Made by a program: the position numbers and the translations under genes | Part shown: in pieces, positions 24,725 to 63,586 of the stretch | Layout of the letters: each line of letters begins with the position of its first letter | How positions within the stretch are numbered: the stretch's first letter is position 1 | The notes under the pieces: generated by a model | The model's database searches: none | What the model was told of the DNA's origin: nothing | Seen by the model: only the letters and a program-made list of their open reading frames with translations | Assembly: GCA_964291575.2 (NCBI GenBank) | Contig: OZ219850.1 | Coordinates: 170,808 to 234,807, forward strand | DNA: 64,000 nt | Direction: 5' to 3' | Source: Opitutales bacterium | Lineage (GTDB): Bacteria; Verrucomicrobiota; Verrucomicrobiia; Opitutales; UBA2995

Positions 24725-24793
24725 TCCATCCATGTCCATCCATGTTAATTCTAATTCCTAATTCCTAATTCCTAATTGGCGCCAACGGCGCCT
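24725..24793. repeat. micro-tandem word array: (GTCCATCCAT)x2, (TTCCTAA)n, GGCGCC-AAC-GGCGCC hairpin
   Basis: Read directly. The hairpin at 24778-24792 ends 1 nt from the sulfatase stop codon. Confidence 0.85.
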
Positions 24794-26215
24794 TCATCCT
24801 TCTCCAGGCCAATGTGGGGATGGCACGTGCTCGGATCTGAGGCGTCTTTCCAAGTCATTCGCGATTTCCGGATATTGCCCGGATACATCGGACTCTTCCC
24901 TGGGGTCCACCTCCAGGTCATACAATTCCAATGGGCCATCCAGGCCGTAGCGAACCGCCTTCCACTTGCCCAATCGTCCCGCCTGCCAGAGCCGTTTTCT
25001 GGGAAATTCCCAGTAGAGGAACCGTGTTGAGAGATCCTGGGGTTCCCCCCGAAGGGTCGGCGCCAAGCTGACTCCGTCAAGGTCCACGGGCAGCGGGGCT
25101 CCGGTCAGCTCCGCAAAAGTAGGGAGAATGTCCGCGAACATCCAGACCGTTTCATCGGTTGCCCCGGCCTCCACCTCGCCCGGCCACCTCACGATGAGGG
25201 GAACGTTGAGACCGCCCTCGTAAACCGTGCCTTTCCTTCCCCTTTTTCCTGCATTCGAGTCGAGAAACACCGTCCGGTCATTATTCACCGCCCCGTTGTC
25301 CGAGGTAAACATGACCAGCGTCTCTTCGGTAATTCCCAATCGTTCCAGCTCTTCCATTATTTCGCCCAGGTATCCGTCCAGACGCGACACCATGGCGGCA
25401 TAGATCTTGAACGGTTCCGGCCAATCCTCCTCCTCATAGGGACCAAGGGATGGCACTTCCATAAGGGCGTGGGGAATGGTGAAGGGAAGGTAGAGAAAGA
25501 ATGGTTCTTCCCTGTGCCGGCGCATGAAATCGAGGGCAAAATCGCGCATCAGGTCGTTGGAATACACTTGCCGTCTTCCACCCTGGTTTTCGGGAATGGC
25601 CATCTTTTCGCGGTTCCTCCAAAGAAAATCCGTGTAATAGTAGGAAGCGTGATTCTGATTGAGGTACCCCAGCCACTCATCGAAGCCCATGTGAGTCGGT
25701 GTCCCCACCGAAGTCGGCTCCCCTATTCCCCATTTGCCGGCCGCTCCCGTGGCATAGCCGGCTTCTTTTAGAACCGAGGCGACAGTCGGTTCATCCCCGA
25801 TCAATGATAACCGCATGCTGCCTTCCCCGAATTGCTCCAATTCGCCTCCCACTTGCGGTCCATTTCCCCGAATGCGGGCATGCCCCGCGTGCAGGCCCGT
25901 CATCAACACACAGCGGGAAGGAGCGCACACCGGCGAACCGGCATAGAATTGGGTAAACCGGGTTCCCTGTTCCGCCAGCCGGTCAATATGCGGGGTGAGA
26001 ATCTGATCCCCTCCAAAACAACCGAGATCTCCATATCCCAGATCATCCGCCATAATGAAGATGATATTGGGCTTGGTCGGGAAAGATTCCGCCCACACCA
26101 CCGATTGAATTGAACCGCAGAGGACACAGAGGAAAAAGCTCGCCAAGGCGCGCCAATCAGGAATTAGGAATGAAGAATGAGGAATTGGGAGAAGATGATG
26201 AACCACAGAGGACAT
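24794..26215 (-). CDS. sulfatase (formylglycine-dependent, arylsulfatase-A-like)
   Basis: IIFIMADDLGYGDLGCFG and CAPSRCVLMTG (C-x-P-x-R) motifs. The start is set at the first ATG giving a hydrophobic leader (26215). The track ORF extends to 26389 through repeats. Confidence 0.88.
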   Translation of the reverse strand: MSSVVHHLLPIPHSSFLIPDWRALASFFLCVLCGSIQSVVWAESFPTKPNIIFIMADDLGYGDLGCFGGDQILTPHIDRLAEQGTRFTQFYAGSPVCAPSRCVLMTGLHAGHARIRGNGPQVGGELEQFGEGSMRLSLIGDEPTVASVLKEAGYATGAAGKWGIGEPTSVGTPTHMGFDEWLGYLNQNHASYYYTDFLWRNREKMAIPENQGGRRQVYSNDLMRDFALDFMRRHREEPFFLYLPFTIPHALMEVPSLGPYEEEDWPEPFKIYAAMVSRLDGYLGEIMEELERLGITEETLVMFTSDNGAVNNDRTVFLDSNAGKRGRKGTVYEGGLNVPLIVRWPGEVEAGATDETVWMFADILPTFAELTGAPLPVDLDGVSLAPTLRGEPQDLSTRFLYWEFPRKRLWQAGRLGKWKAVRYGLDGPLELYDLEVDPREESDVSGQYPEIANDLERRLRSEHVPSPHWPGEG

Positions 26216-26479
26216 AGAGAGCACAGAGGGGGAGGAATGCAAAGGAAGAAGGCAGAAGGCAGAATGGGATCCACGAAGGACACGAAGAGGCGCGAAGAAA
26301 ATTTCGATCACGATCAAGATCAAGATTCGCCTCTCTTTCCTCTTCACTCTTTCCTCTTTCCTCTGGAGCGAAGCGACTTCCTCCCTCATTCTTTGCGTCC
26401 TTTGCCTCTTGGCGGCTTTGCGAGAGACTCCTCTTCACGTTCCCCCCCTCAGGCCAGGCTATGGAGACCTGAGTAGTTA
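26116..26479. repeat. mosaic word array ending in the right half of the MITE; overlaps the 5' end of the sulfatase CDS
   Basis: Words present: CCTCTGTGTCCTCTG, GGCGCGCC, (TTCCTAA)n in reverse orientation, (GATCAx)n, and CTTTGCGTCCTTTGCCTCTTGGCGGCTTTGCGAGAGACTCCTCTTCACGTT...GGAGACCTGAGTAGTTAC. Confidence 0.85.
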
Positions 26480-26740
26480 CCAAATCCTGCTAACATTCCA
26501 CCAGCGGGAGGTTCGAAAAACCATTTGTTGGGAAATGTCTGCATGGTCGCCGCCTGGTTTCCCTTTTCTTAGCTGGAATTTATGCGACCTCATCTCCGGT
26601 GGCACATCCACCAGATAATCTTTGTAAATCTGGAATTCATTCCAATTCTGCAAGAAATGCCCGGTGGCCAGATCATTTGGCACCCTTTTCAGGATGAAAG
26701 CATTCAGTGGACTAACTTGAAAAATAACGTTGATTTTCAA
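26477..26740 (-). CDS. possible degenerate RelE/HigB-like (killer-protein-like) toxin; very tentative
   Basis: 87 codons from a TTG. Only a loose by-eye resemblance of ...VDVPPEMRSHKFQLRKGKPGG..ISQQMVFRT to the ..LH.LKG.RKG.WS..IN.QWR..F pattern. Confidence 0.2.
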   Translation of the reverse strand: MKINVIFQVSPLNAFILKRVPNDLATGHFLQNWNEFQIYKDYLVDVPPEMRSHKFQLRKGKPGGDHADISQQMVFRTSRWWNVSRIW

Positions 26741-27058: not shown

Positions 27059-27265
27059 GGGTTTCCAATGTCTCCGATTAATTCCCCTTTCACGGCTGAT
27101 GATGAACCCGATTCCCTTAAAAATGCTACTCCCACACCAAGCTACGGGGTATCTAAGCACTTTTATCCGCCACTAAGCGGGGGACCGGAAATCGGGGACG
27201 TGCTATTACCGCCTCCAGGTGAGCCGGGCCTTTGACCTGTCCGATTAATATTGAAAACAAATTAA

Positions 27266-27605
27266 ACAGATTTACACGGATAAAGCGCCAACGGCGCCCG
27301 CATTTGTGCCCCTTCGTGTCCTCCGTGGATCTAATTTCTATTCAGCCTTTAACCTTCAGCCTTCAGCCCCTCTCTCAGCATCTCTTTTCCTTTGTGCCTT
27401 TTAATTCCTAATTGGCGGCCACGGCGCCTTTTGTGGAACCCCGTTGGGGTTCGTATTTTTTCCGATTCCTACCCAGTGTGCGTTTTGCGACACTGGGCTT
27501 TGGAGTGGAACTGCTTTGCAGTTCATTCAAGACTACTTTCCTCTTTCCTCTTTCCACTTTCCTCTGGGCTCCAGCCCCCCTCTGTGTCCTCTGTGGTCTC
27601 TGTGG
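27266..27605. repeat. mosaic word array
   Basis: Contents: ACAGATTTACACGGATAA, GCGCC-AAC-GGCGCC, AGCCTTY repeats, TTCCTAATTGGCGGCCACGGCGCC, hairpins GAACCCC-GTT-GGGGTTC and CCCAGTGT..ACACTGGG, CTCTGTGTCCTCTGTGGTCTCTGTGGTTA. Confidence 0.85.
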
Positions 27606-34957: not shown

Positions 34958-34974
34958 TCCTGGATGCTCGATTC

Positions 34975-35300
34975 TCGATTCTGGGTTACTCTCGCTACTT
35001 GTCACGCCGTAATCCATGAAGGCGGAAGCTCGCCAAGAGGCGCTAAGAGGCGCCTCCGGCGCCAGTGATCAGTGGTCAGTGAGCGCCATTATCTGCTTTC
35101 AGCAGAACAAGATCGCTTCGCGAGCAGTATTTAACGGAGGGCGGGTTTTCCAACCCGCCCATTCGTAGGGGCGAGGCATGCCTCGCCCACATTCCTTCAT
35201 GCCACGCCGTGAGGCGGGTCCCCTGGCGCCACAGGCGCCAATCGTGATCTTGATCTTGATCGTGATCTTGATCGAAAATCCCTGAGGAATTCCGTAGGAT
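34975..35300. repeat. mosaic word array with GC palindromes
   Basis: Contents: CTTGTCACGCCGTAATCCATGAAGGCGGAAGC, GGCGCC-TCC-GGCGCC, CAGTGGT units, hairpin GGGCGGGTT-TTCC-AACCCGCCC (35140-35161), perfect 20-nt palindrome GGGCGAGGCATGCCTCGCCC (35170-35189), (GATCAx)n. Confidence 0.85.
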
Positions 35301-35306
35301 GCTGAA

Positions 35307-38143: not shown

Positions 38144-38197
38144 TTCCGGTTAAATTGTTCACAAATCGGCGGACTTTTTCGAGGATGGAATGGTTAG

Positions 38198-38342
38198 ACG
38201 CGCAGAAGCGCGCCAATTAGGAATTAGGAATGAAGAATGAGGAATTGGGGAGAAGGAAGTTTTAAACTATTAGGCTCGGTGACAGAGCCAGGGTGTTTTA
38301 GCCGGAAAGAGGACTCTCGCAAAGTTCGCCAAGAACGCTAAG
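38198..38342. repeat. word array flanking the IS element on the left
   Basis: GCGCGCC, then AATTAGGAATTAGGAATGAAGAATGAGGAATTGGG (near-identical to 26149-26190), then CTCGCAAAGTTCGCCAAGAACGCTAAG. Confidence 0.8.
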
Positions 38343-38429
38343 ATTTTTTAGAATACAGAGATATTGAAATAAGAAAGGTGTGGTTTTGTGATGGTATGGG
38401 TTCAATCCGAATCTGATAAAACTTGTTAA

Positions 38430-39835: not shown

Positions 39836-39926
39836 TTGACCACATACCTGCTTTTTGTGGCTAAATTCCCATCCGTGGCTCTTCCTTGGCCAAAATTTGC
39901 CGCATCCACCCTTCAACCCTCAAATC

Positions 39927-40100
39927 GAAAAATTCCTAATTCCTAATTGGCGCCCCCTGGCGCCTCTTTGCGTTCTTGGCGATCTTTGCGAGAGGTAATT
40001 CCTCTGGGATTTTCGATCACTATCACGATTTATTTCAGCACCTTCAGCCATCAGCCTTTATAACCTCTGTGTCCTCTGTGCTCTCTGTGGTGATTTGTTT
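39927..40100. repeat. word array flanking the IS element on the right
   Basis: (TTCCTAA)n-TTGGCGCC-CCCT-GGCGCC, CTTTGCGTTCTTGGCGATCTTTGCGAGAGG, GATCAC units, AGCCTT units, CTCTGTGTCCTCTGTGCTCTCTGTGG. Confidence 0.85.
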
Positions 40101-40113
40101 AAAGGACGTCACC

Positions 40114-49292: not shown

Positions 49293-49981
49293 TTTGTAAT
49301 CGATCCTGAATAAGTTTTCATCGTTTCGGAAGGTTGGATAGTTCGGATTTTCTCGCGCCACTTGTCACGCCGTAATTCATGAAGGCGGAAGCACGCAAAG
49401 ACCGCTAAGAAGAAACCACAAAAAGCTCAAAAATCCCAAAAAGTTTTCTACAACTAACCACAGATTATACAGATTTACACGGATAAGGCGCCGCAGGCGC
49501 CCGCCTCTGTGTCTTTTCCACTATTATTTGGCCGTTAATCCTTTTATTGAAATTGTTGGGGGACAGGAATGTCCCCCCTCCTTTTTTAATCTGCGTTAAT
49601 CTGCGTCATCTGCGGTTCCTCTTCTCCTAATTCCCTGTCTTTGCGTTCTTGGCGATCTTCCGCCTTCAAGCGTTACGGCGTGACGTGTTGCGAGAGTTAA
49701 ATTAGTGAGAAGTGGAGAGATGCCAGGAATTAAGCCTTTAGCCTTCGTGCCTTCAATTCCTAATTCCCAATTCCTAATTCCTAATTCCTAATTCCTAATT
49801 GGCGCCCCCAGGCGCCTCTTATCCTGTGCATCCATGTTTAATTTTCGATCACGATCAAGATCACGATCAAGATCACGATTCCAAGAAATCTCAGCATCTC
49901 GGCAACTCAGCATCTCGGCATCTCTAATAATTCCTAATTCCTAATTGGCGCCCCCAGGCGCCTTTGTGCTCTGTGGTTAAT
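49293..49981. repeat. mosaic word array (~0.69 kb) including the shared leader cassette
   Basis: Contains nearly the whole vocabulary, including the longest (TTCCTAA)n run (49757-49800) and two TTGGCGCCCCCAGGCGCC hairpins. Confidence 0.9.
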
Positions 49982-52504: not shown

Positions 52505-52859
52505 AATTTATTCGATCAAGATAAAGTCATCATCGTTTCGGAGAATTGGATTGTCCTGAAATTCTCTCGCCACTTGTCACGCCGTAATTCATGAAGGCGG
52601 AAGCACGCAAAGACCGCTAAGAAGGAACCACAATTAAAGGCAGAAGGATGAAGGAAGAAGGCTGAATAGCCGCCATCTTGATCCTGATCGTGATCATGTT
52701 CGCAAATATAAAAGGGGAAAAGACTCACGCAAAGGTTAAGCACAAGCATCCGGAAATCAACTGACCATTTCCAAAACTGACCTCTGATAACTGAACTCTG
52801 CACACTGACAACTGGCGCCCCCGGCGCCTCTCCCTCTGTGTCCTCTGTGCTCTCTGTGG
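52505..52859. repeat. mosaic word array including the second copy of the leader cassette
   Basis: CACTTGTCACGCCGTAATTCATGAAGGCGGAAGCACGCAAAGACCGCTAAGAAGG, AGCCTT-type units, (GATCAx)n, CAGTT/CAGAGG units, GGCGCC-CCC-GGCGCC, CTCTGTGTCCTCTGTGCTCTCTGTGGTTA. Confidence 0.9.
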
Positions 52860-55265
52860 TTAATCTTCCAAAAACTGCATGGCGTAGAGATCCGTGCCCC
52901 GCATGTGGAAAACCAGGCGAACCGTTTTTCCAGCCAGGGCGGTGAGGTCCGTGCCCTTTTCCAACCATTCCACGGTATGTGCAACCGAGTTGGTATTGAT
53001 GTAGATACAATCCTCCAGTGCGTAACCCGGTATGGAATTTCCACCTTCATCGAGGATACCCACCTGGGCGTAACCAGCGGCGCCGGTGTCGATGTTCAAC
53101 ACCAAACGATTTCCCGTAAAGGTAAGGGGTAAAGTGGTGAAGCCGCCTCCGGTATAAGAGGTGCGAAGGGAAACAAACCCGTCCAATCGCTGGGTCAGCC
53201 GATGCGTAACCGGGCTGGGCGCATCCTCGGTCCAGGGATCGTGATAGGAGGCCCGCGTGTAGGAATACTGGAAAATCTCATTTCCCCGCCTGACCATGCC
53301 ATGGGCCAGATAAGGCCGCCTCACCGGAAAACCCTTATGGTCTCCGATGGGCAGATAGGCCGGCCTGGGATACCGTTTCCAACTCAATCCATCGCGGCTG
53401 ACCGCCAACTGGGGTTCCACCATGCCGGTGCCCATTTCCCGGCTGGGATGGGCCAGAATCTGCCGGGCCTGCGGTCCGTCTCCATGGTAGTGGAAAAACC
53501 AGAGCGGAAAAGCCAGGTAGGCGTCCTCCGCCCAAGGGTATTTGATAGCCCGAGTGTTGTAGAGATCGGTCGCCACCGGATCCAGATTCGGGTCCCGGCC
53601 CATGGCTATAGGGAACTCGACCCCGAAACCCGGAGGGGCCAGGGGTCCATTGTCCAGCCACCAGGGATCCCACTGCTCCACCTTCAGGGGCCGCTCCCGG
53701 TGGATTCGCAATGCCTTTTCCCGCGTGGTAGGCTCAAATTCCCAAGCCCCAAAAAGGTCCGTGACCTCCGTCCGCACAAAAAACCGCTCGGTCCGCCCGG
53801 AGGGAGTCGAGCCGTAGTCGGACCGATGATGTCCCAGATACACCTGGCGCTGGTCGTCGTAATACAGGGTCGAAGCCGACCCGGGCCAGAAGGGAAGCGC
53901 CGCCGTTTCACTGCGTTGAAAAGTCCACCCGTCGGGTGACGTCCAGATATACCAGCCTCCCCGGTCGTGCAGCCCTACCAATGCTTTCCATCGTTCCTCG
54001 GGCGGACCATTTGGATCGATGATAACGGAACCGGCTTTGGCCGGCCCGGGAATGACTTGGTTGCCCCGGCCATTGCCCAAATCCGGAGCTTCGAAATGAA
54101 GGCCATCCCGGGAGGTCCAAACGGCGACTCCTCCCGCGCCTTCACCGTAAAGCCTTATGAGTCCGTCATTGCCCTCGATCACAGTGGACCAACCAATTCC
54201 TCTATCCAGGACAATTTCTTCCAGTCGGGCCGGATGCGGGATCAGCCTTGCCCCCTCGCTCTCGGCCAGAAAAACGTCATCGAGGAAGAGATGCTTGCGG
54301 GAGCCCATTTCCACTACTCCGGAAGGAGCCCCGTTGCCCGAAAAGAGGAGTTCCCCTCCTTTTTTCAGGGTATAAGGTTTCCTGCCTGCCATATGCAGGC
54401 GCGAGTAACTTCCGGGAGGAGAAAAAGTTCCGGTATAATCGACACTGTCGGAAAAGCGTAGTTCATCGATAGCCCCGGGCAGGGGTCGGTTCCACAGTCC
54501 GTCCCGGGCAACGCTGAAGTAGGCCTCTTCCCCAATGGGGAGCGCCTGCAACAGGGCCGATGCTTCCGCCACCACCTCCCCGTTGAGATACCAAATCAAC
54601 CGGCCATTACCATGAGTGAGGGCATAGTGATTCCAACCATTTCCGATAGCATCCCGGGAACGGAGTTCCACAGTCCCTCCTCCAGCCCGGTTGTAGAAAC
54701 GGAGCTGATGTTCCTCCGGTATGACCGAAAGCCGGGTAACCCGGTCATTTTCCCCCCGGGGTCCACTGCCGATTTCAAATACCACTCCCTCCCCGGCAGC
54801 CCTCTCGTCCAGCTTCAACCAGAATTCAACCGTCCAGTCACCAGACCCGAGATTGAGGCCCGTCCGAGTGGCATTTTCAAACTCGAGCCGTCGCAAGTGC
54901 CTGTTCCCATTGGTAAACAGGGCGGCAAAGCGGTTATTGAACCAGGTCAAAGGTTCCACCGTGCGACCGGGTTGGAGCGCAGGAGCCTTCAATCCGAAGC
55001 GGATGTGGGTTTCCTCATTGGAGGGTTCGTAAACCGGCTCCCAATCCTCCGGTTCGACCGCGCCAAGAGCGCCGCCAAACTTCCCCGGCACGATGGACCC
55101 GCCCCGCCCCAAAATCAGGTGCAGGCCATTGGGGGTGGCATCCGAGAGCGGACAACTGGGATAAAGGCCTTCCTGCTCGTCAAACAACCATAGAGCCACC
55201 GTCTCGGCCCTGGACACGGGAACCGAAAGCAGCAGCAAAGCGGCGAAGGAAAATATTCGTTTCAT
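52860..55265 (-). CDS. paralogue of 49982..52504 (LamG domain plus GH-like region), exported
   Basis: 801 aa from ATG 55265 (MKRIFSFAALLLLSVPVSRA). Collinear similarity to the neighbour throughout (ETVALWLFDE, DWTVEFWLK, IDELRFS, KYPWAEDAY, RLDGFVS, LYAMQF). Confidence 0.6.
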   Translation of the reverse strand: MKRIFSFAALLLLSVPVSRAETVALWLFDEQEGLYPSCPLSDATPNGLHLILGRGGSIVPGKFGGALGAVEPEDWEPVYEPSNEETHIRFGLKAPALQPGRTVEPLTWFNNRFAALFTNGNRHLRRLEFENATRTGLNLGSGDWTVEFWLKLDERAAGEGVVFEIGSGPRGENDRVTRLSVIPEEHQLRFYNRAGGGTVELRSRDAIGNGWNHYALTHGNGRLIWYLNGEVVAEASALLQALPIGEEAYFSVARDGLWNRPLPGAIDELRFSDSVDYTGTFSPPGSYSRLHMAGRKPYTLKKGGELLFSGNGAPSGVVEMGSRKHLFLDDVFLAESEGARLIPHPARLEEIVLDRGIGWSTVIEGNDGLIRLYGEGAGGVAVWTSRDGLHFEAPDLGNGRGNQVIPGPAKAGSVIIDPNGPPEERWKALVGLHDRGGWYIWTSPDGWTFQRSETAALPFWPGSASTLYYDDQRQVYLGHHRSDYGSTPSGRTERFFVRTEVTDLFGAWEFEPTTREKALRIHRERPLKVEQWDPWWLDNGPLAPPGFGVEFPIAMGRDPNLDPVATDLYNTRAIKYPWAEDAYLAFPLWFFHYHGDGPQARQILAHPSREMGTGMVEPQLAVSRDGLSWKRYPRPAYLPIGDHKGFPVRRPYLAHGMVRRGNEIFQYSYTRASYHDPWTEDAPSPVTHRLTQRLDGFVSLRTSYTGGGFTTLPLTFTGNRLVLNIDTGAAGYAQVGILDEGGNSIPGYALEDCIYINTNSVAHTVEWLEKGTDLTALAGKTVRLVFHMRGTDLYAMQFLED

Positions 55266-55456
55266 AGGGGAAAAAGGGGTCAAAAAACGTGAAGAGGAGT
55301 CTCTCGCAAAATCGTGATCGTGATCGTGATCGAAAATTTCTGAGGAACCAACCACGGATTGAATTTTCAACTGGGAAGAAAACGTAAAGAGGAGTCTCTT
55401 TGCGTCTTTGCGAGATGCCCCTCTTCACGTTTCCCCCCTATTGCCTTTTTTCCCGT
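55266..55456. repeat. word array with an inverted pair of the GAGAGACTCCTCTTCACG word
   Basis: CGTGAAGAGGAGTCTCTCGCAAA (about 55290-55312) faces TTTGCGAGATGCCCCTCTTCACG (about 55405-55430). GATCAC units and CCACGGATT lie between. Confidence 0.8.
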
Positions 55457-56605
55457 TTACCATGCCTCTCGGTAAATATTTTCCGCGTCCGCAGCCGAAA
55501 GTGCCCGTGGATTGTTCCGCAACAAACGGGTTACTTTCATGGATTCCCTGGCCAAGGTTGGGATGGCTTCCTCGGGAACCCCGAAATCGCGCATCCGTTG
55601 CGGAATACCACAGTTCCGGGAAAGTTTCTCGAGCCGGGCCAATCCCCTTTCAGCAGCTACCTCATCAGAATCTCCGATCCCAACTCCCAGCGCCCTGGCG
55701 ATCCCGGCGTAGCGGTCGGGAGCAGCTGGCAAATTGAATCGAAAAACGGCTGGGGTCAGCAGTGAATTGGATACACCGTGAGCTACGTGATAGGCCCCTC
55801 CCAAGGGATAGGACAGGGCATGAACGGCAGCCGTATTGACGGGACCCAGACAGAGGCCTCCATTCATGGCCCCGTGCATGACCCGGGTCCTCGCCTCCAG
55901 GTCCGAACCGTTTTCAACAGCCCTTTCAAGGCCCCCTCCGATCTGGCGAATGCCTTCCAATGCAATGGCATCTACCACCGGATGAGCATGCAAGTTGGCA
56001 TAGGCTTCCATGCAATGCACCAGGGCATCGTAACCGGTCGCAGCCGTTATGGAAGGAGGCAGACTCAGGGTCAGTTCCGGATCCACGAAAGAGGCATCCG
56101 GAACCAGATGCGGACTGACCACGCCTTTCTTCAACTTCTCGCCTTCATCCAGAATGATCGAATTGGGAGAAACATCGGCTCCGGTGCCCGCGGTAGTCGG
56201 TATGCAAGCCAGGTAGGTTTCCCGGCCCTTTAACAGCCCGATTCCGAATACCTCCTCAACCATCTGGGAACCGTTCCAGAGAGCGGCAACCAACTTGGCC
56301 ACATCCAGGGCGCTGCCTCCACCAAACCCGACAATTGCATCGGGTTCATAGGCTTGTGCCGCCTGAAGCGCCTGGTAGAAATCAGTCAGGTCCGGTTCCC
56401 GGTCCGTTCCGACGAACATCCCGACTTCCAACCCCTCTGCTTTCCAGGTTTCCATTTGGGCTTGCGCCATTTCAGCGGGCACTCCCTCGCTCGTTATCAG
56501 GAATACTCTTTTCCTGGAAGCAGCATTCAGTTCAGCAGCCGCCCCGGACACACAGCCCGGACCAAAAAAGAGGCGCTTGGGTTGTTGTAAGATTAAAGGG
56601 TTCAT
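55457..56605 (-). CDS. iron-containing alcohol dehydrogenase (lactaldehyde reductase/propanediol oxidoreductase-like)
   Basis: 382 aa. GFGGGSALDVAKL dinucleotide motif. Conserved His cluster (ALVHCMEAY, HALSYPLGGAYHVAHG). Confidence 0.85.
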   Translation of the reverse strand: MNPLILQQPKRLFFGPGCVSGAAAELNAASRKRVFLITSEGVPAEMAQAQMETWKAEGLEVGMFVGTDREPDLTDFYQALQAAQAYEPDAIVGFGGGSALDVAKLVAALWNGSQMVEEVFGIGLLKGRETYLACIPTTAGTGADVSPNSIILDEGEKLKKGVVSPHLVPDASFVDPELTLSLPPSITAATGYDALVHCMEAYANLHAHPVVDAIALEGIRQIGGGLERAVENGSDLEARTRVMHGAMNGGLCLGPVNTAAVHALSYPLGGAYHVAHGVSNSLLTPAVFRFNLPAAPDRYAGIARALGVGIGDSDEVAAERGLARLEKLSRNCGIPQRMRDFGVPEEAIPTLARESMKVTRLLRNNPRALSAADAENIYREAW

Positions 56606-56644
56606 GTAACTACTCAGGTAGTTTAAACAATGGTCCGTCCCAGG

Positions 56645-56733
56645 AAAAAGGGGTCAAACGCAAAATGTTGAAATCGACCGCTAACGTTCCCCCCACCATC
56701 CAGATTTTAACATTTTGCGTTTGACCCCTTTTT
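56645..56733. repeat. 89-nt near-perfect hairpin (family C), copy 1
   Basis: 31-nt arms AAAAAGGGGTCAAACGCAAAATGTTGAAATC / GATTTTAACATTTTGCGTTTGACCCCTTTTT with one G-T pair and a 27-nt loop. Preceded by a MITE left TIR at 56607. The right arm contains the sulfatase stop codon. Confidence 0.9.
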
Positions 56734-58080
56734 CAGGTCGCCAGGCGGAGGTTCGGACGCCTGCCCGCCAGCCGCTTCATCAAATTGGGGATTCGGCGCC
56801 ATTTCCTGAGCCCCGATCCGGCGGCGCCAGTCCCGCAATGCGGCGGACAGGGTCTCCACCAACTCGGGATATTCCCCGGCCAAGTCGTTTTCCTCCCAGG
56901 GATCCTCCTTCAGGTCGAAGAGTTCAAAAGCTGGAAACTCAGCTGAATTGCCCATACTCCCTTCAAACCACTCGATCAACTTGTGGTTTCCGCGAAGGGC
57001 CGAACCACAAGGCCCCAGCCCGGTGTGATGATAGTGTGGGTAGTGCCAGAAGAAAGTTCTCGGCTCATCAATTGCACCTTCCCCGGAAATAACAGGCAGC
57101 AGGTTCAACCCGTCCAGCTCTGCTTCCGGCAACCTCGCCCCCGTCATGGCCGCCAATGTGGGAAGCAGGTCGGCCAGGGAAACAGCCCCCTCAATGACGC
57201 GTCCCCCGTCCAAGCCCCCGGGCCACCGCATCAGGAAGGGCACGCGAAGCCCGCCCTCATAGAGGTCGGATTTGGCCCCTCGCCAGGGTTTGCGAACGTT
57301 GCTGTCGGCATAGGCGCCATGATCGGAGGTAAAAACGACAATGGTGTCCTCCCGCCCACCCGACTGGTCCAGAGCCTCCATCAACCGGCCAAACGCATCG
57401 TCCAACTCCGCCACCATGGCCGCCTGGGTTGGATGAACCCACTCCTTCTCCCGGGGAGGTTTGTTTTGAAAGCGTTCCAGGTAAGTCGATGGAGCTATCT
57501 CCGGACGGTGAATGGTGTTGTGAGCCAACACACACAGGAACGGCTTGTCGCGGGGTCGCCGGAGAAACTCAATGGTCCGGTCCGTCAGTTTCCGCACATT
57601 GTGGGCATCGTCCTCGGGATCGAAATGGGGCTTAGGCTTTAGCGTGACAAATACCTCGTCGAACCCATGGGATTCCGGATCCATGGGCCGGTGCCTCCGG
57701 TAATGGTAATCCTGCCCCAGGTGCCATTTTCCAATGTGAGCGGTTTCGTATCCCTGAGCTTTGAACACGTCTCCCAGGGTTTGCTCGTGAACCGGCAGTC
57801 CTTTTTGCCAATCCGGGGTAATCAAACGGGGATTGGCGGGAACGGTGCCCGGAATGTAATTGGTCAAATGCAGACGTGCCGGATGGCGCCCCGTGTAAAT
57901 CCCGGCCCGGGCCGGAGAGCAAACCGGCCCCGTGGCGTAAGCCCGGTCGAAGCGGATTCCCTTGCCGGCAAAAGCATCGAGATGCGGAGTCTCGTAGTAT
58001 CCGCTGCCGTAACAACCCAATTGGCAGGACGACAGATCATCCACGATGACCAGCAATATATTGGGATGGCTCCCCGTCAT
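56707..58080 (-). CDS. sulfatase (formylglycine-dependent) without a recognisable signal peptide
   Basis: 457 aa. ILLVIVDDLSSCQLGCYG and CSPARAGIYTG motifs. Starts directly MTGSHPNILLV. The last 8 residues KKGSNAKC and the TAA are encoded by the family C hairpin arm. Confidence 0.88.
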   Translation of the reverse strand: MTGSHPNILLVIVDDLSSCQLGCYGSGYYETPHLDAFAGKGIRFDRAYATGPVCSPARAGIYTGRHPARLHLTNYIPGTVPANPRLITPDWQKGLPVHEQTLGDVFKAQGYETAHIGKWHLGQDYHYRRHRPMDPESHGFDEVFVTLKPKPHFDPEDDAHNVRKLTDRTIEFLRRPRDKPFLCVLAHNTIHRPEIAPSTYLERFQNKPPREKEWVHPTQAAMVAELDDAFGRLMEALDQSGGREDTIVVFTSDHGAYADSNVRKPWRGAKSDLYEGGLRVPFLMRWPGGLDGGRVIEGAVSLADLLPTLAAMTGARLPEAELDGLNLLPVISGEGAIDEPRTFFWHYPHYHHTGLGPCGSALRGNHKLIEWFEGSMGNSAEFPAFELFDLKEDPWEENDLAGEYPELVETLSAALRDWRRRIGAQEMAPNPQFDEAAGGQASEPPPGDLKKGSNAKC

Positions 58081-58181
58081 TCCAATCCCCCTCTTGCCTT
58101 GTGTGACGACAGATCATCCACGATGACCAGCAATATATTGGGATGGCTCCCCGTCATTCCAATCCCCCTCTTGCCTTGTGT
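58028..58181. repeat. perfect 77-bp tandem duplication (2 copies) covering the sulfatase start codon, first 17 codons and 24 nt of leader
   Basis: 58028-58104 equals 58105-58181 base for base as read. Confidence 0.9.
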
Positions 58182-58215
58182 GCTTCTCGTGGCCATTTCC
58201 ACTTCTTGGACCAGG

Positions 58216-58302
58216 AAAAAGGGGTCAAACGCAAAATATTAAAATCCGATTGGCGGGGGGAAGTAGAGGAGGATTTCAACATTTTGCGTTTGACCCCTTT
58301 TT
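58216..58302. repeat. family C hairpin, copy 2 (inverted orientation)
   Basis: Arms at 58216-58246 and 58272-58302. The two mismatches are A-C on the plus strand, hence G-U on the minus strand. Confidence 0.9.
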
Positions 58303-58340
58303 CCCCTTTGCTTCTTGGCGGCTTTGCGAGAGACTCCTCT

Positions 58341-59933
58341 TTATATTTTTTCCGCCTTTCCCGCCTTTTCCGCCTCTTCTCTTCTCAACTTTCTCACCTG
58401 ATGAATGGTCAATTCCTCCACATGGGCCGGCCGGTAACCTCCGAAGAGGCGGCTGGTCAGATAACCCACGCCAAAGAGAATGAAGTGACCGAACAGGCCG
58501 ATGAGCATGGAGTTCATTTCCCAATTGAACCCGAAATCCAGGATGCGGCGGCCCTCCCCGTCGGGCTTGGACAAGAGGGCCCAGGAGGTAAAGATCACAC
58601 ATGCCGCAATTCCGTAATAGACCCCGGTGCGGGTGGCGCGCCGTGTCAGAAAACCGAGACAGAATAATCCCAGGGTACCGCCCGATATGATGGTGGCGAT
58701 GGTTATGGCCCGTTCCATCAGGGGAACCGATCCATCCTTGGGAAGCAACAGTATCGCTATGGTGGAGGCCGATAAGCCCCCGATCATTACAAAGAGCCGC
58801 CCGCAAATCAGGCGTGTTCTCTCCTTCACTTTGGGAAAGATATTTCCGAAGTAGTCGGTGGTCAGGACCGTTGCTATACTGTTGAGATCGGCGCTCACCG
58901 AGGACATGGCCGCGGCCAGGATTGCGGCCAATATCAACCCCAATACCCCCGCCGGAATGTAGTGGGAAAGAAAATAAGGCATGACCTCATCCGCCTTGAC
59001 GGGTCCGGCATCACCGGGCATCAGTTCGAAGAATCCATAGAAACTGCCCCCGATGAACATGAAGGCGAAGAATATGGGCAGGCAGCAAAACGCCCCCATC
59101 AAGGCGCCGCGGCTGGCCGCCTTGTCCGACTCGCCGATGAGGTAGTTCTGCACGATGTGCTGATCGGTGATATAGCGGCGGCTCCACTGAATGAAGTATG
59201 CGAAGAAGAAAATCCAGATGGTGGTGGTCTCCCGGTCGAAGAGCATGCGCCAGGAAAACTCCCAGGAACCGAAACTGTAACGGCCCGCCTCCCATGAAGA
59301 CTTGATGATACCCGCCGGATCCCCGATCTCCGGAGCAAACAGGACCCGGATCAGAATGAGCGCGGCTCCGCCCGACAAAATGATTCCCTGAGCCACGTTG
59401 GTCCAGGCCACCGCCGTGATGCCCCCGATCATGGTGTAGATCAAGGTGAACAGACCGGTGCCTAAAATGACATGCATGGGGTCCCAACCGGTAAAGACAT
59501 AAAGCGCTATGCCCGTCGTCACCAGCGTCACCCCGAGGTCGAAGGTGCGGTCGGCCAGAAATCCCAGCGAGGTGTAGATGCGACTGCCCAGTCCGAACCG
59601 GCGGCCGACAAATTCGTAGGCGCTCATCTGCACCACCCGCCGGTAAAAGGGCACGATCCACACCGCGACGATCAGGAGCACCAACGGCAGCAACATGTGC
59701 GGGAGGAACAGTATCATCCCCTTATCGTAGGCGGTGCCGGGGTGCCCGACAAAGGTGCCGCTCCCCACGATGGTAGCCATCAGGGTAAAACCCACCGCCC
59801 AGGACGGAATGGAACGGTCCGCCGTGAAGAACTTGCGCACGGTCCGTTGCCCGCGGGAGACGTAAAGCCCTATACCGGCAATGCACGTCAAATAGATTAG
59901 AACTACTACCCAGTCGATAACAGCTAACTCCAC
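58341..59933 (-). CDS. sodium:solute symporter (SSS) family transporter
   Basis: 530 aa, about 13 hydrophobic segments, with the typical SSS N-terminus (DWVVVLIYL...GLYVSRGQRTVRKFFTADRSIPSW). Confidence 0.88.
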   Translation of the reverse strand: MELAVIDWVVVLIYLTCIAGIGLYVSRGQRTVRKFFTADRSIPSWAVGFTLMATIVGSGTFVGHPGTAYDKGMILFLPHMLLPLVLLIVAVWIVPFYRRVVQMSAYEFVGRRFGLGSRIYTSLGFLADRTFDLGVTLVTTGIALYVFTGWDPMHVILGTGLFTLIYTMIGGITAVAWTNVAQGIILSGGAALILIRVLFAPEIGDPAGIIKSSWEAGRYSFGSWEFSWRMLFDRETTTIWIFFFAYFIQWSRRYITDQHIVQNYLIGESDKAASRGALMGAFCCLPIFFAFMFIGGSFYGFFELMPGDAGPVKADEVMPYFLSHYIPAGVLGLILAAILAAAMSSVSADLNSIATVLTTDYFGNIFPKVKERTRLICGRLFVMIGGLSASTIAILLLPKDGSVPLMERAITIATIISGGTLGLFCLGFLTRRATRTGVYYGIAACVIFTSWALLSKPDGEGRRILDFGFNWEMNSMLIGLFGHFILFGVGYLTSRLFGGYRPAHVEELTIHQVRKLRREEAEKAGKAEKI

Positions 59934-59952
59934 GATATAATCCTCGACTTCC

Positions 59953-60942
59953 TTACCAGGGCATCACCCGCCCCGTATGTTTACGACCGATTTCCGCCGC
60001 CTCCCGGCTGCCGCCGGCCGCTATATCGATTCCTCCATCGATACCGGAAATTACATTGTCGGGCAGAACGTTATTGAGAAAAGCCACCCCGGCCGCATCG
60101 GCCGCGGCCAGAACGCGATCGTTGGCCGCCACCACCTCCGGAGGCAAGGGGGGATCGGCCCGTCCCTCCAGGTACCCGTAGGACAACCCCATGTCGCGCG
60201 GACCCGACTCGACAAAGGCCAGCCCCGCCACCGCCGCGGTCGCCTCGCAGTTGCGCAGGGCATGGGGATCTTCGATCTTCACCCCCAACATGATTTCCCC
60301 CCGCGGGTTCAAGGGCCAGGTATCGGCCACCGTAAAATATTCCTCGCGGGTAAGCCCCCAGATCTTTCTGGCAAAACCATCGCTGCCCATACCGCGGACA
60401 CCTTCCTCGAGCCCCCCTTCGAGATCGAGTCCCTGTCGATGCACGGGGTAGCGGGCTTGCCGGACAAACTCCCGCACCGCCTCGGGGTCGCGGGCCCGGC
60501 ACAAATGAACCCCGTGGATGCCGGCCGAGAGCGCCTGCTGAACCATCCAGCCATTGATCTTCACCGATTGGGGGTCCAGGCCCATCAAGGGCAAGGTCAC
60601 GACCACGGCCGGTGTGCGGTGTCCGCTCGGAGTGGGTCCTCCCTCCAGCAACCCGGACATGAAGGACCGCAGGAGATTGAAATCCAGGGCGGAGTGCTCC
60701 ATGTCGTACATGATCAGATCCGCCCAGGTCTTGGACAGGGATTTCCCCAGCTCGAACATTTCTTCACCGGTGCGCGGCGCGTCGCTTCCACGGGCGCCGT
60801 AGGTATAGTAAATGGGTTGGCCGGCCTCCAACAACTCAATGGCCTTGTTGAGGCGCTTGGGACCTGAATACTCCGCCCCAAGACAGGAAGCCGCCGCGAA
60901 AGCGGCCAGAAAACAGGGAACTCGAAACACGCGCGACATCAT
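59953..60942 (-). CDS. HpcH/HpaI-family (2-keto-3-deoxy-sugar-acid) aldolase homologue with an N-terminal signal/lipoprotein-like peptide
   Basis: IMYDMEHSALD and GVKIEDPHALRNCEATAAVAGLAFVESGPRDMGLSYG match the HpcH/HpaI pattern. N-terminus MMSRVFRVPCFLAAFAAASCLGA. Start set at ATG 60942 (track start 60984). Confidence 0.75.
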   Translation of the reverse strand: MMSRVFRVPCFLAAFAAASCLGAEYSGPKRLNKAIELLEAGQPIYYTYGARGSDAPRTGEEMFELGKSLSKTWADLIMYDMEHSALDFNLLRSFMSGLLEGGPTPSGHRTPAVVVTLPLMGLDPQSVKINGWMVQQALSAGIHGVHLCRARDPEAVREFVRQARYPVHRQGLDLEGGLEEGVRGMGSDGFARKIWGLTREEYFTVADTWPLNPRGEIMLGVKIEDPHALRNCEATAAVAGLAFVESGPRDMGLSYGYLEGRADPPLPPEVVAANDRVLAAADAAGVAFLNNVLPDNVISGIDGGIDIAAGGSREAAEIGRKHTGRVMPW

Positions 60943-60961
60943 GACAGACGGGGTTGGTTGA

Positions 60962-62641
60962 TTAAAGGGATCCGGCGCCCACACCTTGGGGCGGGTCCTC
61001 TTTCAAAGTAAAGGTGCGGATAACATCGAAGGCGTTTACCCCGCCAGTAGTGGTTTGGACCGCGCCCCAGACTTCCATCCGGCGACCGTCGGAGGACTTG
61101 ATCACCCGCCACTGGCCATCCTCGTGATCTTCACTAAGGCGCACGGGGCGGCCGGCCAAATCGGAGGGCAGGGGCTCCGCCGTTTTCAGAACAGTGGAGT
61201 AAGTTTGGGAATTGAAGGAAAGGGATAGGATCCTGCCGCGGAGAGCATCTTCCAGAAATATATCTGCAATGGGTATTCGACTCGCATCCCCCACCGAAGG
61301 TTCAACCATGTTTCCCTCAAACGTCACCCTCGCCTCAATCGGCCCCACCGGTCCCTTGAGCACGTTTCCCGAAAAATAACTGGGCCCGAGGGTTTCCTTG
61401 TCCTCCAGGAACTTCCAATCCTGCCAGACCGTATTGTTCTCCGCTATGATCTCGGAACGTTGCAGATACATGCCGCCGTAGTTCTCAGCAATCACGTTCC
61501 CGACAAATTGAGCCCGTGACTCCATGGTTATCCGCATGGCTCCGGAGTTGTCCGCGGAGTTGCGGTTCCCCACAAAGAGATTCCCCTCTACCAGGACGTT
61601 AAACTGTTCTTTGGCCGGATAAGGGTCCAAGGGTGCATCGTAGCGGTGTTCCTGCCCTCCGATAAACAGCCCGCCCGCATCGTCGTCGCTGTAGTTGCCC
61701 ACAAAGACATTGGACGAAATTTCGGGCGCGGCCCACAGCGCCACAAAGACCCCGCCCGCGTCGTTGTTGGCCAGGGAGGAATTGGCTACGATAACGTTAC
61801 CGGAAAATTCCCCGCCCGACCCGTCAAACCAGGATACCGCCCCGCCATCGCTGCTGCGCATCGGATCGTCCATGCCGGCCCGGTTGTTGGCGAAAACATT
61901 GTTCTTCACCACCGGGTTGGCCCCTAAGTCCACCGCCAAGGCGCCCCCCCGACCACACTCGGTGGAGTTGTTGAAAAAATAGTTGTGCGAAATCTCGGGC
62001 TTGGCTCCGTTGAGGACCATGACGGCTCCTCCGTCATTGCCGGTCTCGTGGATGAGAGGAGGGTTCCACGGATCCGGGATCAGGGTGCGGTTGTTGACAA
62101 AGACGCAATTGGTTATGGTCGGAGAAACGCCGTCGCAATGAAGGGCGGCTCCTTTCCCTCTAACGCGCGCATCCACCAGATGAAAGCCGTCCAGCCGCGC
62201 ATGATCGGCCCCGAAGAGGATCCGCCGGTCCCCGTTCCCATCCAATACCGTAGCGTGGGCATAAACGTCGCGTTCGCCCCCCGGCCTTGCGTAGCCGCCA
62301 TACAAGTGAACATGCGGGCGCAATACAAAGGTCGGTTGCAGGTAGCGACCCTTGCAAACGAGCACGGCCACCCGGTGGTTCGGGGTGGCAAAGCCGGAAT
62401 GCTCAAGCGCGTGAACGATGCTGGCCCAGGGCTTGGATTTCGAGCCATCCCCGACCACGTCGTCTCCGGAACCTTCATCGACATAAAAGACTTGTCCGTA
62501 TTGTCCCGGATCCACCGCCTCCGACCGGGGTCCCACCATGGCTGGAAGAAGGATAGGGAAAAAGGCACAGAGGCACAGAGGCACACAGGCACAAAGGAGG
62601 CGCCGTCGGCGCCAATTTGGAATTAAGAAAGATGTAACCAC
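60962..62641 (-). CDS. right-handed parallel beta-helix (pectate-lyase-fold) protein, candidate polysaccharide lyase/hydrolase
   Basis: Repeated NN..G.GGA/DAGG beta-helix turns (FFNNSTECGRGGAL, FANNRAG, ANNDAGGVFV, SDDDAGGLFI, GNRNSADNSGAM). Start uncertain: GTG 62641 gives a signal peptide, ATG 62539 does not. Confidence 0.7.
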   Translation of the reverse strand: MVTSFLIPNWRRRRLLCACVPLCLCAFFPILLPAMVGPRSEAVDPGQYGQVFYVDEGSGDDVVGDGSKSKPWASIVHALEHSGFATPNHRVAVLVCKGRYLQPTFVLRPHVHLYGGYARPGGERDVYAHATVLDGNGDRRILFGADHARLDGFHLVDARVRGKGAALHCDGVSPTITNCVFVNNRTLIPDPWNPPLIHETGNDGGAVMVLNGAKPEISHNYFFNNSTECGRGGALAVDLGANPVVKNNVFANNRAGMDDPMRSSDGGAVSWFDGSGGEFSGNVIVANSSLANNDAGGVFVALWAAPEISSNVFVGNYSDDDAGGLFIGGQEHRYDAPLDPYPAKEQFNVLVEGNLFVGNRNSADNSGAMRITMESRAQFVGNVIAENYGGMYLQRSEIIAENNTVWQDWKFLEDKETLGPSYFSGNVLKGPVGPIEARVTFEGNMVEPSVGDASRIPIADIFLEDALRGRILSLSFNSQTYSTVLKTAEPLPSDLAGRPVRLSEDHEDGQWRVIKSSDGRRMEVWGAVQTTTGGVNAFDVIRTFTLKEDPPQGVGAGSL

Positions 62642-63586
62642 AAAAAATTTCTTGTTCGTGAAGCGATCCTGTTCCGGCGCGGCCGGATCAAGCGAAGCGT
62701 TGTCAGAAAAACTTTGCGATTCTTTGCCATTCTTTGCGTGCTTTGCGAGAGTCAAATTTGATCAGGATCAAGACTTTGCAGGGGACTGGAATGTCCTCTC
62801 TCCTTAATTCAATTGTAACTACTCAGGTCTCCAAAGCCTAGCCTGCATTTCTACCAAATTTTCATGGGATAGGGATGGAGGAGGGAGGATAAGGAATGAT
62901 GGAGTAATGGAGTGATGGAGTGATGGAGTATTGGAGTGATGGAGTGATGGAGTGATGGAATAATGGAATGTGGCGGAATCAGGATATAACGGAGAGGGGG
63001 TTTTCCATTGGATTTAACGGAGGGGGGACATTCCTGCCTGTCACGCCGGGAGGCGGATCCCCCATAACCCATAAAACAGGGGGTTGGAAACCCCCCTCTC
63101 CTTTAAATCCCAGTTGAAGAAAAAGGGGTCAAACGCAAAATGTTGAAATCGACCGCTAGCGTTCCCTCCTCCATCCAGATTTTAACATTTTGCGTTTGAC
63201 CCCTTTTTCGGTCGCACTCTCATTCTTTGCGTCCTTTGCCTCTTGGCGGCTTTGCGAGAGACTCCTCTTCACGTTTCCCTCCCAGTTGAAAATTCAATCC
63301 GTAATTATCCGTCCTCATCCGTGTAATCCGTGGTTGGTTCCTTTCAGCCTTTAGCCTTCAACCTTCAGCCTTTAGAATCCTTTGTGCCTTTGTGCCTTTG
63401 TGGATTCAATTCCTAATTCCTAATTGGCGCCAACGGAGCCTGTGCCTTCTTCTCTGCGATAATCTGCGTAATCTGCAGTTGGTGGTAAAAATTTTTTTGC
63501 GCTTTTTGTGCCTTTTGTGGTTCCCTTTTTCCTTACTGGCCGAAAAACCTGGCCGCGAAGCAACTGAATAGAACCATCCGTCCAAA
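62642..63586. repeat. mosaic word array (~0.95 kb) between divergent genes
   Basis: Inverted MITE right end at 62816, (GGAGTGATG)n, GGGGGGACATTCC palindrome half, AGGGGGTT-GGAA-ACCCCCCT hairpin, family C hairpin, CTTTGCG... word, CCGTGTAATCCGTGG, AGCCTTY units, TTTGTGCC x3, (TTCCTAA)n-TTGGCGCC, AATCTGCG units. Confidence 0.9.
63120..63208. repeat. family C hairpin, copy 3
   Basis: Same 31-nt arms as copy 1. The loop differs at a few positions. Confidence 0.9.

Follow-up and report, generated by a model that had tools for sequence, protein, structure and literature searches.

Recurring words in the intergenic gaps of a polysaccharide-utilization region

The window analyzed here is a stretch of 64,000 nucleotides from an Opitutales bacterium (assembly GCA_964291575.2, contig OZ219850.1, positions 170,808 to 234,807 of the forward strand). 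Pfam analysis showed that its genes are ordinary for polysaccharide utilization, encoding sulfatases, TonB-dependent receptors, Laminin_G_3 proteins, GH31 and enolase-superfamily enzymes and a sodium:solute symporter. Many of the gaps between these genes are built from a vocabulary of short recurring words, most of them micro-tandem arrays. This vocabulary is spread genome-wide within one clade, is polarized by strand, lies in part directly past stop codons, turns over rapidly and has formed genome-specific subfamilies.

About 60 arrays of period 6-10 were detected in the window with Tandem Repeats Finder, nearly all in gaps between 14.4 and 63.5 kb. Coverage was measured in a 729-kb pool, consisting of the window and 86 loci, together from six related genomes, and representing about 3% of the clade's genomes; a gap was termed a vocabulary gap when at least 25% of its bases lay in 11-mers present at six or more places of the pool. 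By this definition, 17 gaps right of 14 kb consist of 25-69% vocabulary, amounting to 4.1 kb of their 9.1 kb. Fourteen of them lie inside 24.3-63.6 kb, and the other three further left (14073-14719, 15842-16283 and 22562-23126). A preliminary description, made from the letters of the window without database searches, had estimated about 5 kb of repeats in fifteen gaps; the mosaic gaps are real, and three start left of where it had placed them. Its statement that gaps left of 14 kb are free of words agrees with the 0-16% of shared 11-mers measured there.

The vocabulary gaps and the features within them are listed below, with the strand where one was assigned and percentages giving coverage by shared 11-mers (REP, repetitive extragenic palindrome; REPIN, REP doublet forming a hairpin; MITE, a miniature inverted-repeat transposable element; IS, insertion sequence).

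14073-14719: vocabulary gap, 33%; GTAG REPIN 14418-14491, (TCCATCAC)n 14512-14538, C-module 14548-14611
15842-16283: vocabulary gap, outside the interval of the preliminary description
22562-23126: vocabulary gap, 42%; REPIN 22873-22946, array 22978-22997, C-module 23014-23077
24351-24793, plus: vocabulary gap, 53%; (TGTCCATCCA)n, (TAATTCC)n, then hairpin TTGGCGCCAACGGCGCC, 1 nt from the stop codon of a minus-strand sulfatase gene
26111-26581: vocabulary gap, 60%; AATGAGG, AAGGCAG, GATCAA and CTCTTTC arrays; C-module 26399-26453
27059-27605, plus: vocabulary gap, 53%; ACAGATTTACACGGATAA+hairpin word 27257-27315; TTCAGCC, CTTTCCT and CTCTGTGGT arrays
34958-35306: vocabulary gap, 62%; CACTTGTCACGCCGTAATCCATGAAGGCGG word, GTAG-type hairpin GGGCGAGGCATGCCTCGCCC(CTAC) at 35169, (ATCTTG/GATCAA)n array
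38144-38343, minus: vocabulary DNA left of the IS110 element; hairpin+(AATTAGG)n 38201-38249, the only minus-oriented one of the window, then C word
38654-39835, plus: IS110-family transposase gene; right end of the element near 39861, abutting a CTTTTTGTGG|CTA word
39836-40113, plus: vocabulary gap, 56%; (AATTCCT)n+hairpin module, C word, GATCAC array, three CTCTGTG units adjoining the stop codon of the 40114 gene
44106-44909, plus: largest mosaic gap, 65%; word order E I B A-hairpin D H O D D C K J A-hairpin, nearly all plus
47262-47549, plus: vocabulary gap, 66%; nine CAGTGGT units, C word, ATCTCAGC array, (TAATTCC)n+hairpin directly past the stop codon of a PhoD-like gene
49362-49981, plus: vocabulary gap, 69%; two A-hairpin modules, GATCAC/GATCAA array, GGGGGACAGGAATGTCCCCC hairpin
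52505-52859: vocabulary gap, 53%; CACTTGTCACGCCG word, GAAGGAT array, CCCTCTGTG array
55371-55456, plus: short vocabulary gap, 59%; C-module variant
56606-56734: gap with 91-nt MITE-like palindrome at 56644-56734
58081-58340: vocabulary gap, 31%; palindrome halves; C-module 58305-58359
62561-63567: 1-kb mosaic gap between divergent genes, 61%; AGGCACAG and GGAGTGAT arrays (purine form on plus), hairpins, MITE-like palindrome, C-module and the series ATCCGTG / AGCCTTY / CCTTTGTG / A-hairpin

All words named in the preliminary description were recovered in the window gaps (families D1-D18; GGGCGAGGCATGCCTCGCCC at 35169), although the array it gave as 'CCATCACTC' has a period of 8. The (TTCCTAA)n-TTGGCGCC module was found 9 times and TTGGCGGCTTTGCGAGAG 8 times in the window, compared to none in shuffled sequences. 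The suspicion that words create false low-complexity open reading frames (ORFs) was borne out as well: frames 44497-44865 and 47228-47503 are spurious or over-extended, as are the starts of 24794-26389 and 14504-15841. Many words, including CCTTTGTG and CCATCACT, lack stop codons and are the source of such frames.

The first 14 kb (positions 1-14000, TonB-receptor and other genes on the plus strand) contain the long gaps 4715-5314 and 8206-8997, which are essentially free of vocabulary. The sign of the GC skew switches near 18-22 kb, and an island, operon constraints or a replichore boundary are options for this word-free part.

Three kinds of words

A de novo census yielded 40 words of three kinds, namely palindromes, a GC-rich hairpin followed by AATTAGG units, and arrays led by a header. 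The first kind includes true GTAG REPINs, of which that at 22873-22946 is a perfect hairpin (-33.1 kcal/mol, z -9.3) and that at 14418-14491 is somewhat weaker (-24.3 kcal/mol, z -5.5); further hairpins are footed by GTAG or by TAACGGAG. It also includes a 91-nt MITE-like perfect palindrome at 56644-56734 (-32.3 kcal/mol, z -12.8), with a second copy at 63119-63209 and half copies at 58215-58304. This palindrome has the terminal inverted repeats and the copy number of a MITE, while most words are without terminal inverted repeats. The GTAG tag is carried by CTGTAGGAG-stem words and by GTAGGGGCGAGGCATGCCTCGCCC; the commonest hairpin, GAGGCGCC-N-GGCGCCAATT, and the TAACGGAGG-stem words lack it. 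Stem-loops of REP/REPIN type are found in the hairpin words only, the tandem arrays that form the bulk of the vocabulary having none.

The second kind consists of the GC hairpin GAGGCGCC-N3-4-GGCGCC (or GGCGCGCC), followed on the purine strand by 1-6 perfect AATTAGG units and, distally, by the degenerate units AATGAGG, AATTGGG and AATGGGG. Because the 7-nt unit holds TAG, and TAA on the opposite strand, three units are enough to place a stop codon in every frame, and (AATTAGG)n / (TTCCTAA)n arrays, such as that at 49755-49800, have stop codons in all three frames of both strands.

The third kind comprises arrays of a 7-nt core with 1-3-nt spacers (CACAGAG, CACGGAT, CACAAAG, CGCAGAT and CGCAAAG). 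A fixed 5' header, (T)AACCAC, precedes 47 of 60 CACAGAG arrays, RACCAC precedes 64 of 87 CACGGAT arrays, and CGCAAAG arrays have the header CTCTCGC. Array words of the vocabulary include the AATTAGG and CACAGAGNN arrays, and the heptamer units include AATTAGG, AAGGCTG, AATGAGG, AGCATCC and CAGTGGT. Most arrays are short, 15-75 bp. In the pool, array periods peak at 7 (341 of 966 arrays) and 9 (259 arrays), with 328 distinct canonical units.

Several words recur as parts of longer blocks. A 60-nt imperfect array at 44455-44514 is repeated with 100% identity at 63340-63399, a 76-nt block at 47444 recurs at 49871 with 95% identity, and identical unit orders recur in imperfect arrays, such as those of families D10 and D16. 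A 55-85-nt unit, the C-module, is present in 5-7 near-identical copies over 49 kb of the window and forms a subfamily private to the genome of the window; the CBDCNU genome has its own near-identical private C-module subfamily. Neighboring words are co-oriented (318:111 in the pool), with preferred but not fixed neighbor pairs. The order is not freely shuffled as had been supposed; several of the listed words are parts of copied blocks of 50-90 nt, and arrays carry fixed headers.

We also observed an element of about 100 nt that is not tandem, (TTTGTGGAACCCC..GGGGTTCG)...GGTAACCCAGCGTGCGCTGCGCGACACTGGGCTTTGGAGTTCAACGCCGTTGGCGTAAAA, containing three small hairpins. In the window it lies at 44200-44312 and 27471-27518, and the loci have about 20 copies, spread over the clade. 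Rfam gave no match to the element, which folds only marginally better than shuffled sequences (z -2.0).

Occurrence in one Opitutales clade

The exact 22-mer of the commonest module gave at least 86 matches, counted as 8-kb stretches, and among the matches listed all are in five metagenome-assembled genomes (MAGs) of Opitutales/Opitutia, three of which are assembled into contigs of 1.7-3.6 Mb. Among the contigs of these genomes are CBDBFA010000003.1 (3.6 Mb) and CBDCML010000003.1/4.1. One of the MAGs (JAJDZZ010000003.1, locus L026) shares synteny with the window over 44.9-52.5 kb at a nucleotide identity of 87-91%, and the window therefore represents a sixth, related genome. In the pool, shared 11-mers cover 38% of the non-coding bases and 5% of the coding bases. 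As a control, we used 338 kb of loci from distant relatives, obtained from a metagenome scan with the PhoD-like protein (homologues at most 57% identical). These loci contain 31 arrays per 100 kb, compared to 132 in the pool, and vocabulary matches numbered 2 in total. No match to the repeats was found in viral contigs and plasmids, and Rfam 15 gave no match at gathering score over the whole window. Avoidance of restriction-modification sites was dropped as a candidate explanation, as coding DNA shows no avoidance of GGCGCC or GATC.

These data also bear on an assembly or sequencing artefact, which is excluded for practical purposes. Short tandem arrays can mis-assemble, and two of the related MAGs were assembled from short reads and are fragmented, with contig breaks at IS copies. 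However, six independent assemblies share the same words, modules and composite blocks, orthologous modules stand at the same gene ends in two assemblies, and the arrays, mostly 15-75 bp, fit within a single read. Both conditions under which the preliminary description would have been withdrawn, a collapse of the arrays in independent assemblies and confinement of the words to the window, were contradicted: the arrays stand in the 1.7-3.6 Mb contigs, whose size points to long-read origin, and words occur throughout the five other assemblies.

Strand polarity follows GC skew

In the window, asymmetric words show a strong bias to the plus strand. We compared their net orientation with GC skew in 86 units of 8 kb, measuring skew only in ORFs of at least 250 amino acids. 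Word orientation correlates with coding GC skew (Spearman rho -0.62, p 1e-10). Gene strand shows no such correlation (rho -0.05), and GC skew is itself independent of gene strand (rho 0.09). Pyrimidine-rich word forms lie on the C-rich strand, as shown by the following counts.

TTCCTAA: C-rich strand 78, G-rich strand 31
CCTTTGTG: C-rich strand 21, G-rich strand 5
ATCCGTG: C-rich strand 42, G-rich strand 13
AGCCTTY: C-rich strand 22, G-rich strand 6

Because CCTTTGTG and ATCCGTG have equal G and C, their polarity goes beyond base-composition skew. Along the two longest contigs, mainly one word orientation is seen over one long stretch. The idea that words are used freely in both orientations is therefore contradicted by the window bias, by the co-orientation of neighbors and by the dependence on skew. 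If the leading strand is taken to be the G-rich one, as is customary, GC skew would place the purine-rich forms on the lagging-strand template.

Rapid turnover between related genomes

Orthologous gaps were compared among the related genomes. In gaps whose flanking genes are 82-96% identical, the vocabulary is common to both genomes, sometimes together with the gene-proximal module, but the arrangement is not. For example, gap 49362-49981 and the orthologous gap of L026 contain the same words in a different arrangement, and the orthologous module beside the 49982 gene has 2 units in the window versus 4 in L026. One orthologous pair shares 390 bp of promoter-proximal DNA at 98-99% identity, beyond which homology ends abruptly at the vocabulary DNA. 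Gap length can differ greatly: L011:4554-6317 measures 1763 bp versus 114 bp for L009:3335-3449, with flanking genes 96% identical. The 1763-bp gap is entirely vocabulary and contains an internal duplication of about 1.2 kb. Another pair (L015/L076, 96% identical) has no word-rich gap and was uninformative.

Word abundance shifts as well. Core words are found in all six genomes, and other words differ several-fold: one genome has 43 TCCATCAC arrays per 100 kb and the others have 0-8, three genomes contain almost no AGCCTTY, and the 91-nt palindrome occurs in two only. Such a pattern fits families that proliferate and then die out, rather than fixed regulatory sites.

Gene content also differs in one of these syntenic intervals. 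Different AAA_14+DUF4143 ATPase genes in opposite orientation occupy the same gap (46089-47261, minus strand, versus L026:5028-6203); the proteins share 31% amino-acid identity, and the flanking genes are 87-91% identical at the nucleotide level. Further DUF4143 genes are present in L015, L064 and L080, and the gene looks like a mobile or replaceable cassette.

Hairpin modules near stop codons

The vocabulary fills all four gap types (convergent, divergent and tandem arrangements) alike, at 34-43%. Among 141 copies of the hairpin+(AATTAGG)n module, the hairpin end lies within 40 bp past a stop codon in 26. The corresponding counts are 4 for a hairpin end within 40 bp of the 5' end of a gene and 2 for an array end equally close to a stop codon. 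In gene direction, the order is the stop codon, sometimes an AACCAC array, the hairpin 0-30 nt past the stop codon, and then the AAUUAGG repeats. This placement suggests that the subset of hairpin modules directly past stop codons probably forms an mRNA 3'-end structure. Against a terminator identity of these modules, which we rejected, AAUUAGGAAUUAGG follows the hairpin in gene direction, T-rich tails being found on the opposite strand only; because AAUUAGG takes the place of a U tract, the stop-adjacent hairpin is not a canonical rho-independent terminator. Orientation linked to transcription was likewise rejected, as the bias with respect to transcription is weak at most (108:82, p 0.07).

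In this genome, consensus hairpin+T sites show no clear enrichment (28 versus 22 and 37 versus 25 in shuffles). In window 44000-63999, sigma-70-like promoter matches numbered 2, against 8.8 expected from shuffles. Promoter and terminator signals of this lineage may be non-canonical.

It might be supposed that the words are functional sites kept by selection, serving as arrays for nucleoid or regulatory proteins, as 3'-end hairpins, or as polar chromosome-organizing signals like FtsK-orienting polar sequences (KOPS) or Chi. A period of 9-10 bp approximates one turn of the helix, word sequences show conservation between species, the polarity matches the inferred direction of replication, as it does in known polar motifs, and (AATTAGG)n carries stop codons in all frames of both strands. 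The sense-oriented hairpin 0-30 nt past stop codons fits as well, and another 3'-end signal may be in use because canonical hairpin+T terminators are not enriched. Nevertheless, we consider this explanation improbable. At orthologous gaps neither the arrangement nor even the presence of words is kept, whereas adjoining promoter-proximal DNA is 98-99% identical; the abundance of single words varies several-fold among sister genomes; the uniform filling of gap types and the lack of a significant transcription bias are unexpected; and the gaps of the first 14 kb do without words.

IS110 elements within the repeats

The preliminary description had noted no RAYT-like (REP-associated tyrosine transposase) or other mobilizing gene. 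Pfam and tblastn found no RAYT or Y1 gene in the window, but an IS110-family transposase gene is present at 38654-39835. Repeated segments of 1.3-1.7 kb were assigned by Pfam to IS5-like DDE, IS3 and IS110 transposases, none to Y1.

IS110-family elements lie within words at window 38654-39861, L021:3392-4670, L063:2412-3690, L004:1-141 and L069:1-131. Two copies in the CBDCML genome, 99.9% identical, are bounded by TAACCACAGAG on one side and AACACAGAG on the other, that is, inside a CACAGAG array. The copies of the window and of JAJDZZ end in ...CTTTT(T)GTGG, followed in two of three cases by CTA(T/A)(T/A)T, a match to GTGCCTTTTGTGGCTATTT, a word present in 36 copies. The right-end junction reads ...CTTTTGTGG followed by CTATTT, and the AACCACAGAG and GCCACAAAAG words are candidates for recognition by a bridge RNA. 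In E. coli, IS621 (IS110/IS1111 type) targets REP sequences. The junctions suggest that bridge-RNA recombinases may use the repeats as insertion targets here, as IS621 does with REPs. The likeness to IS110/IS1111 elements such as IS621 lies in their sitting inside repeats; in this clade they appear as users of the repeats and are not shown as makers.

Origin of the vocabulary

We tentatively favor, with a confidence a little short of even, the explanation that the vocabulary is a lineage-specific family of non-autonomous intergenic modules, belonging to a genus-level Opitutales clade, copied between gaps, resized by slippage, quickly lost and linked to the replication fork. In its favor are the polarity, the anchoring of arrays by hairpins and defined headers, the copied blocks, subfamilies specific to single genomes, the presence of true REPINs, and published work. 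Three kinds of elements would be combined: GTAG REP/REPIN hairpins with MITE-like palindromes, GGCGCC-N3-4-GGCGCC with short (AATTAGG)n, and 7-10-bp arrays that bear a 5' AACCAC header on the purine-rich strand. Modules and composite blocks of 50-100 nt would be copied from gap to gap, array length would then drift through replication slippage, and fast loss of copies would leave orthologous gaps with the vocabulary but not the arrangement. Copying or retention may be tied to replication through single-stranded DNA at the fork, with the purine-rich strand on the lagging-strand template, a link that would resemble single-strand mobilization of the HUH/Y1, RAYT type. Y1/RAYT enzymes act on single-stranded-DNA hairpins, prefer the lagging-strand template and can amplify bacterial interspersed mosaic elements (BIMEs) (PMC3333891, PMC6006769). 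What these patterns let us infer, rather than show, is the mechanism of copying, an enzyme and any role in RNA.

Several observations weigh against this explanation. With E. coli RayT as the query, the best tblastn E-value in the window and the 86 loci (729 kb, about 3% of the clade's genomes) was 2.8, and no Y1_Tnp domain was found among the selected window ORFs scanned with Pfam. Neither a target-site duplication nor a clean pair of empty and filled sites was found among the relatives compared, none of which is at strain level. Most words are non-palindromic and lack GTAG, and more than 40 word families would call for a multitude of enzymes or else for a mechanism of loose specificity. No polarization is seen in two words that are not tandem, CTTTGCGAGAG (32:32) and TAACGGAGG (24:21), and the polarity itself rests on local GC skew, not on a mapped origin and terminus.

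Some of these points suit the principal alternative, an enzyme-free mutational patchwork, which we regard as possible though on balance unlikely. Slippage would make the arrays, template switching or short-tract ectopic recombination at stalled forks would copy snippets, and strand-asymmetric instability on the lagging-strand template would eliminate arrays of one orientation, leaving the polarity. Consistent with it, no mobilizing gene was found by tblastn and Pfam in the 729-kb pool, and the 328 canonical units lie 1-2 substitutions apart (e.g., CACAGAG, CACAAAG, CGCAAAG, CGCAGAT and CACGGAT). Unit number differs at orthologous sites, copied blocks are bounded at array ends and lack terminal repeats (family D14), and polarity by GC skew is equally expected from orientation-dependent repeat instability. 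The over-representation of heptamers in bacteria has been ascribed to polymerase slippage (PMC4692102), which also counts for the patchwork. However, words of 20-40 nt are identical across genomes whose orthologous genes differ by 4-15%, which needs constraint or continual homogenization. Moreover, the arrays are anchored by hairpins and carry fixed non-repeat headers, the placement of hairpins past stop codons (26 versus 2) is not predicted, and arrays in the control relatives are only about a quarter as dense, with words almost lacking.

A further and distinctly unlikely reading is that the hairpin- and header-anchored micro-tandem modules constitute an undescribed class of mobile or templated DNA, distinct from REP/RAYT and made on single-stranded DNA at the fork. 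A nick-and-slip HUH-like enzyme or templated patch repair might be the generator. If true, this would explain a large, changing vocabulary, polarized by GC skew, at about 40% of the intergenic DNA of one Opitutales genus.

Relationship to known bacterial repeats

Taken as a whole, the vocabulary is related both to REP/BIME elements and to the heptamer repeats of cyanobacteria, and it is unusually rich. The comparison with REP/BIME mosaics, with a larger and mostly micro-tandem vocabulary, had been made in the preliminary description; it holds, and the REP analogy is closer than claimed, given that true GTAG REPINs are present. Like REP, BIME and REPIN sequences, the repeats are high-copy, extragenic and hairpin-based and form mosaics with recurring linkers (PMC3733652, PMC3116915, PMC3333891); both are often found just downstream of genes and vary among related genomes, and true GTAG doublets occur here. 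Opitutus terrae has been reported to be rich in GTAG REPs (PMC3733652), and beyond that report we found no description of such repeats in the literature on Opitutales. Judged from palindromic structure and copy number, the hairpin part may belong with GTAG REPs/REPINs, the tag being carried by some hairpins only. Unlike REP/BIME, the repeats are mostly non-palindromic 6-10-bp arrays, their GGCGCC-N-GGCGCC hairpin lacks a GTAG or CGTC tag, the more than 40 word families are polarized by GC skew, and no RAYT was found in the DNA sampled. Nor do they alternate in orientation as in BIMEs: words are co-oriented (318:111), the hairpin-A modules are direct, and the 'linkers' are variable arrays.

The short tandemly repeated repetitive (STRR) sequences known from heterocystous cyanobacteria and the arrays of GGGNATC in Xanthomonas and Nostoc are, as here, dispersed intergenic 7-bp arrays in several unit families, and they are likewise lineage-specific, near ORF ends and variable in length between relatives (PMC4692102). 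Dispersed intergenic heptamer arrays make up 341 of the 966 arrays in our pool. The STRR units of Mazel et al. 1990 are reportedly CCCCAGT, TTGGTCA and CAACAGT. Host and unit differ here: the host is Opitutales, and the nearest unit, GTGGTCA, agrees with TTGGTCA at 6 of 7 positions. Other differences from STRR/GGGNATC are that periods of 8-10 are nearly as common as 7, that arrays are anchored by hairpins or headers, and that REPINs and strand polarity occur. Xanthomonas repeats were reported to lack a leading/lagging preference (PMC4692102).

Palindrome-associated transposable elements (PATEs) derived from IS200/IS605 have hairpin-bearing ends, no terminal inverted repeats and a replication-linked orientation in which the lagging-strand template bears the active strand (PMC6006769, PMC3333891), features that the repeats here may share. 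The orientation bias in our data is of the PATE type, with the replication direction itself deduced from skew. Unlike in PATEs, tandem arrays are a feature here, and no Y1 gene was found in the DNA sampled. The 91-nt palindrome and some composite blocks are, like MITEs, short, non-coding and multi-copy; most words differ in lacking terminal inverted repeats.

This clade may help to clarify the origin, spread and function of REP/BIME, STRR and similar bacterial repeats. About 38% of its non-coding bases are vocabulary, several species-level genomes are available, three with Mb-scale contigs, strand polarity is clear, and turnover is very fast beside well-conserved genes. The same gaps combine REPINs and MITE-like palindromes with heptamer arrays and IS110 insertions, so that their relationships can be studied together. 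In practical terms, the repeats create fake ORFs and over-extended gene starts and break short-read assemblies, and masking is advised in the annotation of Opitutales MAGs.

Other duplications in the window

Two duplications were additionally observed. A perfect tandem duplication of 77 bp (two copies, 58028-58182) lies over the 5' end of the sulfatase gene 56707-58080, and its 100% identity indicates a very recent event or an assembly duplication. A 145-nt inverted repeat of 94% identity, containing no vocabulary words, has arms 18 kb apart at 24417-24561 and 42639-42783, one at the 40114-42801 gene's end and the other immediately past a thiolase gene.

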